A DNA stretch of 47,389 nucleotides from Escherichia coli (GTDB lineage Bacteria > Pseudomonadota > Gammaproteobacteria > Enterobacterales > Enterobacteriaceae): assembly GCF_036507355.1 (NCBI RefSeq), contig NZ_AP027879.1. One strand, given 5' to 3'. Position 1 is the stretch's first letter. The number at the start of each line of letters is the position of its first letter. Positions 67 to 8,861 of the stretch are shown here, one piece after another. The notes below the pieces were generated by a model, which was not told the origin of the DNA, did no database searches, and worked only from the letters and a program-made list of their open reading frames with translations. Position numbers and translations under genes: made by a program.

Positions 67-705
67 TTAAATGGCGTTCAACTTCCTCGATTTTACAGCA
101 CTACTAATTGTCCCTCGACTACAGGCCATAATTTTCTGTACCTGACTCCAGGAACTACCGCTATCGAGCAACCGATTGATGGCATCGTATCGCTCCTTAT
201 TGGCCTGTCGCCCCTTATACCTTCCCTCTTTTTGAGCTTTACTAATCCCCTGTCTTTGACGTTCCCGGCGTTGTTCATAGTCACGACGTGCCACAGCAGC
301 CAGCATGTCGAGCAACATATCGTTAATTGCAGCAAACATGCGGCTATCAAAATCATGGCTTCCTGAAGCTATCCATGTTGTCGGAACGTTGATGGCCATC
401 ACTCGTATATCTTTCTGCCTAATCAATTTTTTCAAGCTGTTCCAGTCTTCGCCAGTCAGACGTGAGAGCCGATCTACATCCTCAATTAAGAGAATATCGT
501 TGTGCCGGCAGTCTTTGAGCAACCTGAATAATTCAGGCCGGTCAAGCCTCGAACCAGATTCATTCTCAATGTAGTAATTGCAAATGTTCAGCCCACGTTC
601 CTCGGCAAAACTATCAATCGCAGCCAGAGCGCGAGAAGCATCTTGTTCAGATGTAGAGGCGCGTAAATAAGCCCGGACAAAGCCTTTCGGTACAGTTTGA
701 GTCAC
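67..705 (-). CDS. Serine recombinase / multimer-resolution resolvase (ResD-like)
   Basis: 212-aa ORF with N-terminal catalytic motif YLRASTSEQ (active-site Ser) and resolvase-like C-terminus. Confidence 0.8.
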   Translation of the reverse strand: MTQTVPKGFVRAYLRASTSEQDASRALAAIDSFAEERGLNICNYYIENESGSRLDRPELFRLLKDCRHNDILLIEDVDRLSRLTGEDWNSLKKLIRQKDIRVMAINVPTTWIASGSHDFDSRMFAAINDMLLDMLAAVARRDYEQRRERQRQGISKAQKEGRYKGRQANKERYDAINRLLDSGSSWSQVQKIMACSRGTISSAVKSRKLNAI

Positions 706-844
706 AGTGTAGAACCAGTTCGATTTAGGTAGTTAAAGCATAACTATACAGTACCCGTTATGGGTGGTATTTAAAAGGCATACTCAAAAAGAACCAGAAA
801 ACAGACCTCCGACCATAAAGTGACAATGTCACACAGAAATTTAC

Positions 845-1072
845 AACATAAAGATGATGTAAAGACGGTCTCAGATTTACCACGTAAAGCCACTATAAAT
901 ACACACAAATCTTTACACAATAAAGATAACATAAATACAAGCTTATCTTTATTTGTGCTTTACATGGTAAATCATGTGTAATATAAAGACACTGTAAAGA
1001 CAAAATAATCTTTACGAACAACACACAATGTAAAGATAAGACAGTCTTTACATAATCTTTACGTCATAAAGA
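845..1072. repeat. Array of about 14 TCTTTAC/GTAAAGA hexamer-core repeats in both orientations upstream of parA; candidate centromere or operator
   Basis: Motif recurs every 10-25 bp across about 230 bp immediately 5' of the ParA start. Confidence 0.5.
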
Positions 1073-1085
1073 GAGGAATTCTGAA

Positions 1086-1748
1086 ATGGGTAAAATCTTG
1101 CTTGTCGTATCAGATAAGGGTGGTGTAGGCAAAAGCACCTACGTGGCTAACACAGGCTCAATGCTGGTCAATAAAGGTAAGTCGGTAATTATCCTCAAGA
1201 CAGATAAAAACCACGATCTGTTGAGCTGGAACGAAAAGCGGACAGATAACGGCTTACTCACTATCCCGGTTCACGCAGCTTACGGAAACGTCAGCAATGA
1301 AATTAAGCGACTTAGTAAGCTGTGTGAAGTCCTCATTGTCGATTGCCCCGGCCACGACAGCCAGGAGTTCCGTAGCGCCCTGACAGTATCAGATATCGTG
1401 GTAACACTGGTTAAGCCGTCCTCTGATTTCGAAAGCGAAACTCTGACCAGTGTTACAGAGAAAATCCGCACCGCTCAGAAAGCTAACGCAGCCCTGGAAC
1501 CGTGGGTGCTGTTCACCAGAATCAACTCAGCGAAACCCCGCCACAGAAAAGCGGCCATTGATCTGGATAAATTACTGCGTTCGGACAACATCTGGATTCA
1601 ACCTCTTAAAACCCGGATATCCGAGCTGGATGTGTATGAAAGCGCCTGTAATGAAGGGGCAGGGGTACATGACGTTAGCCGGGCATCAAGCCTTTCAACA
1701 GCGAAAGCACAGATTGAACTAGTGGCGCAGGAAATTGGAATTTTATAG
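1086..1748 (+). CDS. parA: ParA/ParF-family partition ATPase (small type Ib)
   Basis: 220 aa; deviant Walker A KGGVGKST near N-terminus. Confidence 0.85.
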   Translation: MGKILLVVSDKGGVGKSTYVANTGSMLVNKGKSVIILKTDKNHDLLSWNEKRTDNGLLTIPVHAAYGNVSNEIKRLSKLCEVLIVDCPGHDSQEFRSALTVSDIVVTLVKPSSDFESETLTSVTEKIRTAQKANAALEPWVLFTRINSAKPRHRKAAIDLDKLLRSDNIWIQPLKTRISELDVYESACNEGAGVHDVSRASSLSTAKAQIELVAQEIGIL

Positions 1749-1767
1749 TAATATCAATACCATCTAT

Positions 1768-1786
1768 AAATCTTTACATTGTAAAG
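1768..1786. promoter_or_regulatory. 19-bp palindrome ATCTTTACATTGTAAAGAT between parA and the RHH gene
   Basis: Perfect inverted repeat with the same TCTTTAC core as the upstream array. Confidence 0.35.
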
Positions 1787-1845
1787 ATAATATAAAGATA
1801 GTATGATATTTACTATTAATGCATACCGTACAAGGGGAAATTGTC

Positions 1846-2127
1846 ATGGCTTTAAAACTAAACCGTCCGAACATCGATGAATCTCAGCAACCAGCAACAA
1901 ACGCAGAAACCGCGCGTTTTATCTCCGGCGCTACCAGAGCGCCTGTAGTGGGTAAACCAAAGTTGATGAACTTCAGACTTTCAGCCCATTTTGAGGACAT
2001 ACTGGAAGCTGAAGCTATCAGAACAGGGCAGAGCAAAACAACCGTTCTCAAAGCGGCGCTGGCGATGTACAACAGCCAGGATGAAAACATAAAGAATCAC
2101 TGGTTGCTTGAGTCTGCAAAATTCTAA
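1846..2127 (+). CDS. Small ribbon-helix-helix protein, ParG-like partition or repressor protein
   Basis: About 93 aa from MALKLN (purine-rich stretch upstream); C-terminal KPKLMNFRLSAHFEDILEAEAIRTGQSKTTVLKAAL resembles an RHH fold; sits directly after parA. Confidence 0.55.
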   Translation: MALKLNRPNIDESQQPATNAETARFISGATRAPVVGKPKLMNFRLSAHFEDILEAEAIRTGQSKTTVLKAALAMYNSQDENIKNHWLLESAKF

Positions 2128-2151: not shown

Positions 2152-3129
2152 ATGAGATATTTAACCGAATTGATCTGTGACCTCTACAGGTTGACAGATC
2201 ACCATAAACTGACCACAGCAACGTTTAAAAATCTTGCTGATATTAAGTTATTTAAACCTACAGCAGATGCAGACACCATATTGCAGCTTGAAAATATATT
2301 TAGCGAATACTCACTGAGATATATTGACAAGGATCTGGCTGAAATTCTGAGCAACTTAATAACTACAGATAAGAAACACTCTCTGGACTTCGATTTTAAC
2401 AAAATACAATCTCTGACTGACTCGAAAAGTTTCGGTTGTGGATGGAGCAAGGTAATAAATGGTAGTTGGTTCAAAGATCTTTATTCTTGGGGAGAGGGGA
2501 TGTATCCTGCCGAAAATCTGAAAGCTGAAAATATTTTAGACTGGAAAGATAATATATGGCACATTGAGCATGAAGGTTTCCCCCCACGCCCCCCTATTAA
2601 TGTTAAATATTATTCTTGGTTTGACCGATATGTAGCTTCAAACAGTGGTGGCTCACATCATGCAGCAATGGTTGTATATCAATCAGTCAGAGACGGGTTA
2701 GAGTATAAAAGAGAAGCTGTTATTAAACAACTGAGTATAGACCCAGGCACTGTTGAAATACTTGATAAGAATTACTATTCATTCATATTCCAGATCAAAA
2801 CCCTTAATAAAGAAACTAGAATTTATACATCTGAATACGAGTTTACAGATGCTTTAAAAGACTTTGGACAAAACAGACATACCATACTTAAACCTGTTAA
2901 TTACGTTTCCAACATAAAATTAGTATTTATTCCAAAAGATGCATTAAAAACAAATAGCGAGACATTCCGCAACTGGTTTCATTCTGCAATTAGCTGCGGA
3001 AAAATAATATCACTCCCTGATTATCTGAAAAATCCAGCACATTATCATACACTTCATTACTCACATGAAGTAGACTCAATAACACTTGGCGACCCAAGCA
3101 GAAAATTTAAACTGAAAGGAGATTCTTAG
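2152..3129 (+). CDS. Hypothetical protein, 325 aa, AT-rich, no recognised family
   Basis: Long uninterrupted ORF; no motif I can assign. Confidence 0.6.
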   Translation: MRYLTELICDLYRLTDHHKLTTATFKNLADIKLFKPTADADTILQLENIFSEYSLRYIDKDLAEILSNLITTDKKHSLDFDFNKIQSLTDSKSFGCGWSKVINGSWFKDLYSWGEGMYPAENLKAENILDWKDNIWHIEHEGFPPRPPINVKYYSWFDRYVASNSGGSHHAAMVVYQSVRDGLEYKREAVIKQLSIDPGTVEILDKNYYSFIFQIKTLNKETRIYTSEYEFTDALKDFGQNRHTILKPVNYVSNIKLVFIPKDALKTNSETFRNWFHSAISCGKIISLPDYLKNPAHYHTLHYSHEVDSITLGDPSRKFKLKGDS

Positions 3130-8370: not shown

Positions 8371-8861
8371 TATCGACATGTATGTAGCTTGTGTTATCTG
8401 TGGATTGTGCAGCTCAGCGGGTCGCTGGTCGTATGGCGGAGTGTCCCCCGTAACCGGCCGCGTGCGGCCGCTAACGCGCAGTACGGCGCCGCGTCCCGCA
8501 GACGGGCCGCCGTTCCCGCGCGCAGCACTGCGCACCCCCGTGGGGGACGTACGGCAGCTGCGTGGCGGTGAGCGGGATTAGGGCTTTGCAGCTACCGTGT
8601 TAAGTTCCCTGGTGTCGCTGAAATAGTTGATGAACATCCCCCTAAGCGTCAGCAGCAAGCTGCCGCCGCTTAGGCCCCGGAAATCACGCCCTTTACGTCG
8701 TAAACGCCGTAAAGCCCGCTCACCGGGGTTAAAAGGGATTACTTTGACTTCTTCATTGCTGTTCGCGAGTTAAGGCTAATCAGGGCAGGGGGTAGGGTGG
8801 CAGAATTTATAGCCCGGCAACCGGCTACGCCGGGCTTTCGGCGCCATTTTACAACACAGAC

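Follow-up and report, generated by a model that had tools for sequence, protein, structure and literature searches.

A predicted type Ib partition cassette of IncX1 plasmids, with a heptamer array upstream of parA and a further repeat unit between parA and the adaptor gene

The 47,389-nucleotide stretch of Escherichia coli DNA analyzed here (contig NZ_AP027879.1 of assembly GCF_036507355.1; 'the window' below means this whole stretch) is an IncX1 plasmid, and its positions 700-2200 are 100% identical to many E. coli and Salmonella IncX1 plasmids. Near its start lies a cassette comprising a dense array of short repeats, parA, which codes for a small Walker-type ATPase, and a gene for a 93-residue protein, which we term the adaptor. 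The best-supported reading of this cassette is that it is the type Ib partition system of the IncX1 backbone, combining a small Walker ParA with a ribbon-helix-helix (RHH) adaptor. More specifically, we assign a probability of roughly 0.85 to a type Ib segrosome in which dimers of the adaptor would coat the array of about 19 sites, which would act both as the centromere and as the operator of an embedded promoter, while the tail of the adaptor bearing R24 would activate ParA. The component parts are as follows, with > denoting RTAAAGA and < its complement, both on the top strand:

838-1072, both orientations: array of 19 heptamers, RTAAAGA/TCTTTAY, the predicted centromere and operator of the par operon
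959-987, plus strand: putative sigma-70 promoter of parA from our own scan, with a -35 element TTTACA at 959-964, a 17-nt spacer and a -10 element TATAAA at 982-987
1086-1748, plus strand: parA, coding for a 220-aa Walker-type ATPase, with a GAGG Shine-Dalgarno sequence at 1073-1076
1770-1788, no strand: perfect 19-bp palindrome ATCTTTACATTGTAAAGAT (9+1+9), a convergent heptamer pair, read directly from the sequence
1771-1813, no strand: intergenic site of four heptamers, < at 1771, > at 1781, > at 1792 and < at 1807
1779-1807, plus strand: weak candidate internal promoter for the adaptor gene, TTGTAA at 1779-1784 and TATGAT at 1802-1807, 17 nt apart
1846-2127, plus strand: gene for the 93-aa adaptor ('YafA'), the predicted centromere-binding protein

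A preliminary description of this region had counted about 14 copies of TCTTTAC/GTAAAGA in about 230 bp upstream of parA, and this count is reproduced when up to one mismatch to GTAAAGA is allowed (14 copies in 848-1072, i.e. 225 bp, with four more in 1771-1813). Its title spoke of a hexamer; the repeating unit is a heptamer, of which the relaxed form RTAAAKN occurs 19 times in the 235 bp from 838 to 1072. Exact matches to TCTTTAC/GTAAAGA number 10 in the 47.4-kb window against an expectation of 3.67, and nine of the ten fall in two clusters, at 859-1062 (seven copies) and at 1771-1787 (two copies), for which the Poisson probability is approximately 3e-21. There is no other cluster of heptamer sites in the window, just a single chance-level match at 8690. 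The array has a G+C content of 28%, but base composition does not explain the repeats, since 20,000 composition-matched shuffles yielded a mean of 0.05 and a maximum of two exact copies, as opposed to the seven seen in the array.

The heptamers are also laid out in a regular fashion. Pooling six loci, we found that the start-to-start spacing depends on orientation and is nearly invariant for each type of neighboring pair: 10 bp for <> (24 cases), 11 bp for >> (23 cases) and 15 bp for >< (25 cases), with a < 11 < step also part of the rule. This implies that the array is built of a 36-bp unit, < N3 > N4 > N8. Every < N3 > pair within it constitutes a 17-bp palindrome; six such pairs are present at the locus, against approximately one expected by chance across the entire window. 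Five of these, all degenerate, are in the upstream array, and the sixth, in ATCTTTACATTGTAAAGAT, is the sole one to match TCTTTAC-N3-GTAAAGA without a mismatch. The preliminary description was accurate in placing a perfect 19-bp palindrome, built on the core of the array repeats, between parA and the RHH gene. The intergenic site is nevertheless more than a palindrome: it reproduces a single unit of the upstream array exactly, with 1781-1812 aligning with the array units in a single repeat family (D1). Its spacing string, < 10 > 11 > 15 <, is identical in IncX1, IncX3 and IncX5; the palindrome itself is conserved in IncX2, IncX3, IncX5 and IncI2, and an intergenic site is present in all nine family members examined.

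For comparison, we fetched loci from IncX3 (L003, L004), IncX5 (L005), IncX2 (L006) and IncI2 (L007) plasmids, from an untyped Proteus plasmid (L010), from a Salmonella IncFII/FIC plasmid (L011, NZ_CP045463.1) and from IncX4 mcr-1 plasmids, as well as from an IncX1 plasmid with a true ParFG cassette (L008, CP093105.1) and a plasmid with a pB171-type locus (L013, NZ_CP076692.1). The protein sequences of pB171 and TP228 were taken from Data S1 of PMC12317039. In the alignment of IncX1 with IncX3, 92% of the heptamer columns are invariant as against 49% of the spacer columns (Fisher p = 4e-14), and the TAAA core is invariant throughout. The IncX2, IncX3, IncX5 and IncI2 loci all have the heptamer upstream of parA and a similar site in the spacer between parA and the adaptor gene. 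Homologues of the adaptor occur on about 2,600 plasmids of PLSDB, and the array and gene pair are found together on replicons as different as IncI2, IncFII/FIC, IncX4 and the untyped Proteus plasmid. In those with diverged adaptors the layout is kept and the motif is different: it is GTAAATAC in the IncFII/FIC plasmid (adaptor identity 45%), GTACATAC/GTATTTAC in the Proteus plasmid (40%) and GTGACATAC/GTACATCA in the IncX4 mcr-1 plasmids (33%), and each of the three has its own motif in its intergenic spacer too.

These changes of motif go together with changes in the adaptor strand predicted to read DNA. The base-reading residues of Arc are Q9, N11 and R13, and we used these to set the register of the strand. 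So aligned, the strand reads KLMNFRL in the group with RTAAAGA and KVTNVRL in IncI2, whereas it is SRTYRL in the IncFII/FIC plasmid, PSTFRL in Proteus and LASFRI in IncX4. The residue equivalent to N42 of the window adaptor is accordingly N in all those with RTAAAGA (IncX1, IncX2, IncX3, IncX5 and IncI2), T in both the IncFII/FIC and the Proteus plasmids, and S in IncX4. Such co-variation of strand and motif is what direct readout by the adaptor would predict. Together with the conservation of heptamers amidst drifting spacers, it points, at the level of sequence, to the repeats being adaptor sites, as had been supposed earlier.

The ATPase displays the features expected of a type Ib ParA, a Walker protein of about 200-220 residues without an N-terminal helix-turn-helix (HTH): it is 220 residues long, its deviant Walker A motif (KGGVGKS) begins at residue 11, leaving no N-terminal HTH extension, and it matches the Pfam families AAA_31, CbiA and MipZ. 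Its best match in the PDB, over its full length, is TP228 ParF (E = 1.2e-7), which bears out the original assignment of the region as a partition module. At the sequence level it is 28% identical to a ParF-type protein (E = 4e-13) and, in a full-length alignment, 26% identical to pB171 ParA (E = 6e-16). Against the NCBIfam model ParA_partition, which has a cut-off of 180 bits, it scores 94.8 bits, below that threshold, and the ParF of the ParFG-bearing IncX1 plasmid scores 178.6. It corresponds to RefSeq WP_000516402.1, the accession annotated for the gene in a 100%-identical IncX1 plasmid; its public labels, 'peptidyl-arginine deiminase' and 'division plane positioning ATPase MipZ', are misleading. 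A repeat array upstream of the operon that overlaps a promoter-like site, as is likewise typical of type Ib loci, is present in the form of the predicted centromere, and the promoter-like site at 959-987, from which transcription is predicted to start at about 994, is found again at the matching place in IncX3 and IncX5, while IncX2 and IncI2 have close variants of it.

The adaptor has a disordered N-terminal tail with an invariant motif, ETARFI (including R24), followed by a strand (K39-L45) and three helices. In the predicted structure of the dimer, strand-helix-helix monomers are intertwined and form an antiparallel beta-ribbon, on which basis we model the protein as having the RHH (MetJ/Arc/CopG) fold. 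Pfam RHH_1 is hit below threshold in 15 of 24 adaptor homologues, with a best E-value of 1.6e-4. There is no usable sequence match in the PDB, and neither ParG nor omega is found at E-values up to 10; in profile comparisons with hhalign there is no detectable homology to ParG (probability 1.2%) or to pB171 ParB (0.6%). Databases label the adaptor 'hypothetical protein' (RefSeq), 'CopG family transcriptional regulator' (GenBank) and, in one record, 'parG'.

Taking these elements together, we propose the following mechanism. Adaptor dimers would insert their two-stranded beta-ribbon into the major groove and read the RTAAAGA heptamers, with L40, N42 and R44 as the predicted base-reading positions by register with Arc. 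About 19 dimers would cooperatively coat the 235-bp array at 838-1072 to form the partition complex, and this coating would also repress the par operon because the array encloses the likely parA promoter (959-987). The disordered tail, with its ETARFI motif and R24, would then contact ATP-bound ParA on the nucleoid and stimulate ATP hydrolysis, which would drive positioning of the plasmid as in other ParA systems. The single unit at 1771-1813 would be a conserved fourth component of the cassette, either an operator or an auxiliary centromere.

As to the role of this internal unit, the two likeliest possibilities are an operator adjusting expression of the adaptor against that of ParA, and a minor accessory centromere able to pair with the main array. 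In the latter capacity it would be comparable, by analogy, to parC2; a further candidate role is that of a roadblock which sets the ratio of ParA to adaptor. The candidate internal promoter at 1779-1807, which would suit an operator and, if real, a transcription start at about 1813, is conserved in IncX1, IncX3 and IncX5, and its assignment to the adaptor gene is speculative. A bolder, compound proposal is that the one-unit site is a required fourth component (a ratio-setting operator, or else a second centromere, paired or looped with the main array over the intervening parA) and, at the same time, that single changes of N42 to T or S reprogram centromere specificity, thereby defining separate par-incompatibility groups: IncX1, IncX2, IncX3 and IncX5 with IncI2; IncX4; and some IncF and Proteus plasmids. 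We advance this conjunction tentatively, at somewhat less than even odds; if it is true, NDM-5 IncX3 and mcr-1 IncI2 plasmids have one par specificity in common. In the Salmonella IncFII/FIC plasmid we also noticed a third small site (2086-2130 of that locus) with that plasmid's own motif (GTAAATAC ... ATTTAC), just 3' of the adaptor gene, where it is placed much as parC2 is. Nothing of the kind is present in the window, where the spacer before the next gene is just 24 bp long.

Several points weigh against the partition reading as set out above. The support is wholly computational, consisting of sequence, comparison and predicted structure, and it is from these that we infer adaptor binding, autoregulation, ATPase stimulation, plasmid stabilization and the role of the internal site. 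The promoters were called by their match to the consensus, and a heptamer can by itself look like a -35 hexamer. Since the internal promoter was undetected in IncX2, IncI2 and the IncFII/FIC plasmid, reading the internal site as an operator does not extend to every locus. The co-variation of strand and motif comprises only four specificity classes, and the residue register was set by analogy with Arc. The adaptor has no Pfam or NCBIfam match above threshold; the Foldseek matches of its monomer, among which ParG ranks fifth, are individually non-significant (E ~1), and the dimer model relied on an artificial linker and on just 19 aligned sequences.

The cassette is flanked by two genes that bear on its delimitation:

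67-705, minus strand: serine resolvase gene, divergent from parA
2152-3129, plus strand: gene for a protein of the Pfam family DUF6685, starting 24 bp 3' of the adaptor gene

The preliminary description had drawn the module from 706 to 2127. Its downstream limit, the end of the adaptor gene, stands, and the array begins only at 838; positions 706-837 belong to the resolvase side, because they are conserved even in an IncX1 plasmid with a different par cassette. Within this stretch, the block 706-800 beside the resolvase gene is conserved in IncX1, IncX2, IncX3 and IncX5, and less closely in the ParFG-bearing IncX1 plasmid, and is probably the res site together with the resolvase promoter. A palindrome at 820-832 (GTGACAaTGTCAC), called by a terminator scan on the minus strand, is kept in IncX3, IncX5 and IncX2; as it is kept in the ParFG-bearing IncX1 plasmid too, we assign it to the resolvase/res side rather than to the par module. 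An Rfam scan of 600-2300 gave no match. On the other side, the DUF6685 gene is followed by a ddp gene and then by the Rep3-type initiator. It follows the adaptor gene closely in IncX1, one IncX3 and IncX5, where it is split in two, and is not downstream of the cassette in the other IncX3 locus (L004), IncX2, IncI2 or IncX4. It is probably accessory, outside the core par module, and may be the third gene behind the shorthand 'parFGH' of the literature.

The ParFG-bearing IncX1 plasmid (L008) provides a further observation on this locus. In the slot of the IncX1 backbone that corresponds to 1086-2127 of the window, it has a true ParF/ParG cassette (909-2139 of its locus) with ACTC boxes upstream, which is found on 471 PLSDB plasmids. 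There the ParFG genes are followed by a 103-aa open reading frame of the RHH type, whose residues 43-102 are 78% identical to residues 34-93 of the window adaptor and whose N-terminal tail is unrelated. This looks like a cassette replacement that left behind an orphan or chimeric RHH gene. In the spacer between its parF and parG (1530-1545) are two ACTC boxes 4 bp apart (ttACTCattcACTCat); ParFG-type loci may thus also have an internal adaptor site, although a 4-bp motif could be there by chance.

We considered whether the repeats could have some other function. One alternative is that the array is a mere transcriptional operator of a CopG-like repressor, with the real centromere elsewhere or no centromere in the cassette at all. 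The promoter-like site inside the array and the database name 'CopG family transcriptional regulator' would accord with this, but 19 subsites over 235 bp far exceed what an operator needs, the window offers no second cluster of the motif, and the conserved disordered tail is typical of ParA adaptors. Moreover, the operator boxes of TP228 do not differ in kind from its centromere boxes, and either set can serve as a centromere (PMC3130281). We therefore regard a purely regulatory array as improbable. The array also lies between the divergent resolvase gene and parA on a replicon of the iteron-type Rep3 class, which could suggest iterons of an R6K-like replicon or res sites of the resolvase. Against this, it accompanies the parA-RHH pair on IncI2, IncFII/FIC and IncX4 plasmids, i.e. 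on other replicons and with no adjacent serine resolvase; the ParFG-bearing IncX1 plasmid has the same resolvase and lacks the heptamers, having ACTC boxes instead; and the conserved resolvase-proximal block (706-835) is outside the array. Because the array follows the gene pair across unrelated replicons and is absent from that IncX1 plasmid, iterons and res sites are ruled out for practical purposes.

Instead of serving as a DNA site, the intergenic palindrome could act at the RNA level, as a hairpin in the parA-RHH transcript with effects on the processing, stability or translation of the adaptor gene. Indeed, 1749-1850 folds with the palindrome as a hairpin (minimum free energy -19.6 kcal/mol, z = -2.48, matched by 2 of 200 shuffles), and no terminator is predicted between parA and the adaptor gene. 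Yet the stem is short and A/U-rich, and the site is a full array unit in which two heptamers lie outside the hairpin and the 10/11/15 spacing is observed. In IncX4, Proteus and the IncFII/FIC plasmid, moreover, the intergenic sequence switches to the motif of the respective upstream array, as a cognate DNA site predicts and a generic hairpin does not; since the spacer adopts each plasmid's own DNA motif, a role as RNA seems very unlikely. It would be harder still to credit that the cassette simply diverged within the TP228 ParFG family and had its parH replaced. In favor of this, the ATPase matches ParF best in the PDB, one record names the adaptor 'parG', and 'parFGH' has been used for pOLA52 (PMC3097218). 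On the other hand, the hhalign probability for the adaptor against ParG is a mere 1.2%, the ATPase is as close to pB171 ParA as to ParF (26%, E = 6e-16 and 28%, E = 4e-13), the cassette has no ACTC boxes, a ParFG cassette can take its place in the IncX1 backbone, and a 2025 survey lists the pair as P07, apart from parFGH as P06 (PMC12317039). The earlier statement that the region resembles a parFG-type system is thus apt as a statement of resemblance and goes no further: the adaptor lacks homology to ParG, and ACTC boxes mark the true ParFG cassette of IncX1.

The predicted type Ib partition cassette of the window, then, would work like TP228 ParFGH and pB171 par2 and belongs to neither family. 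In TP228, 20 ACTC boxes upstream of parFG make up parH and the operator OF, and the tail of ParG carries an arginine finger (PMC3130281). With TP228 the cassette has in common a small Walker ATPase, an adaptor of the RHH type (as modeled here) with a flexible N-terminal tail and a conserved arginine, and, upstream of the operon, some 20 short subsites that face either way and in TP228 are both centromere and operator (PMC3130281). Unlike TP228, where 4-bp ACTC boxes are separated by 4-bp AT-rich spacers, it uses the 7-bp RTAAAGA at 10/11/15-bp spacing; its adaptor has no detectable homology to ParG and has an extra C-terminal helix, and it has the conserved extra unit between the two genes. 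With pB171 par2, also of type Ib, it shares an ATPase of 26% identity, an adaptor of similar size (91 aa in pB171, labeled RHH2; PMC12317039) and the presence of more than one cis site per cassette, namely a main site upstream and a second site. They differ in that the repeats of the pB171-type locus (L013) are ATCACA/TTCATA hexamers on either side of the gene pair (700-860 and 1790-1910), with the second site downstream of parB, and in that its parA and parB overlap, leaving no room for a spacer site. The preliminary description was right to call the motif and the placement of the second site unusual in relation to TP228 and pB171 par2; within the family itself, with its approximately 2,600 PLSDB plasmids, an intergenic site occurs in nine of the nine members examined.

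The omega protein of pSM19035 recognizes the heptad WATCACW. The ATCACA/TTCATA repeats of the pB171-type locus resemble this heptad, the two being unrelated type Ib systems. The delta-omega system is also akin to the window cassette in that the RHH protein omega recognizes non-palindromic 7-bp repeats, both direct and inverted, in having several parS sites, and in that activating ParA takes a run of repeats (PMC9499535). It differs in the arrangement, as omega heptads adjoin one another and activity requires an uninterrupted series of four or more (PMC9499535), whereas the window heptamers are 3, 4 or 8 bp apart, and in that the host of pSM19035 is a Firmicute.

The gene pair has been catalogued before. 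The survey of Effe et al. (2025) lists the ParA WP_000516402.1 with the adaptor WP_001185481.1, the latter labeled CBP, RHH2 and parB, as partition system P07 (PMC12317039, Data S1). WP_001185481.1 is the IncX3 variant of the window adaptor, and the P07 entry is the window system minus the heptamer array, the spacing rule and the internal unit. By its own statement, that survey, a catalogue of gene pairs, did not search for par sites (PMC12317039). Among earlier papers, one on IncX1 named the genes parA (yafB) and yafA ('conserved hypothetical'), with the resolvase regarded as the partner (PMC3332091); another, on pX1.0, used 'parFGH' for pOLA52 and remarked on the variability of the par cassette from one IncX plasmid to another (PMC3097218); and in one on IncX6 ParB and parC could not be located (PMC5868456). 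Our search of openly accessible papers found no experimental study of an IncX or IncI2 centromere; the centromere, the spacing rule and the internal unit appear to be undescribed.

These findings leave the understanding of type Ib partition unchanged, and a specialist would not be surprised by them. Their import lies rather in the plasmids concerned: the carriers of the cassette include 46-kb IncX3 plasmids with NDM-5, 33-kb IncX4 plasmids with mcr-1 and IncI2 plasmids of about 60 kb. A centromere defined by motif, spacing and coordinates offers a target for studies of stability and incompatibility and for plasmid-curing designs, and the pairs of adaptors and motifs constitute a natural series for the study of DNA reading by RHH proteins. 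At the level of the family, the prediction is that IncX1, IncX2, IncX3, IncX5 and IncI2 plasmids would have one par specificity in common.

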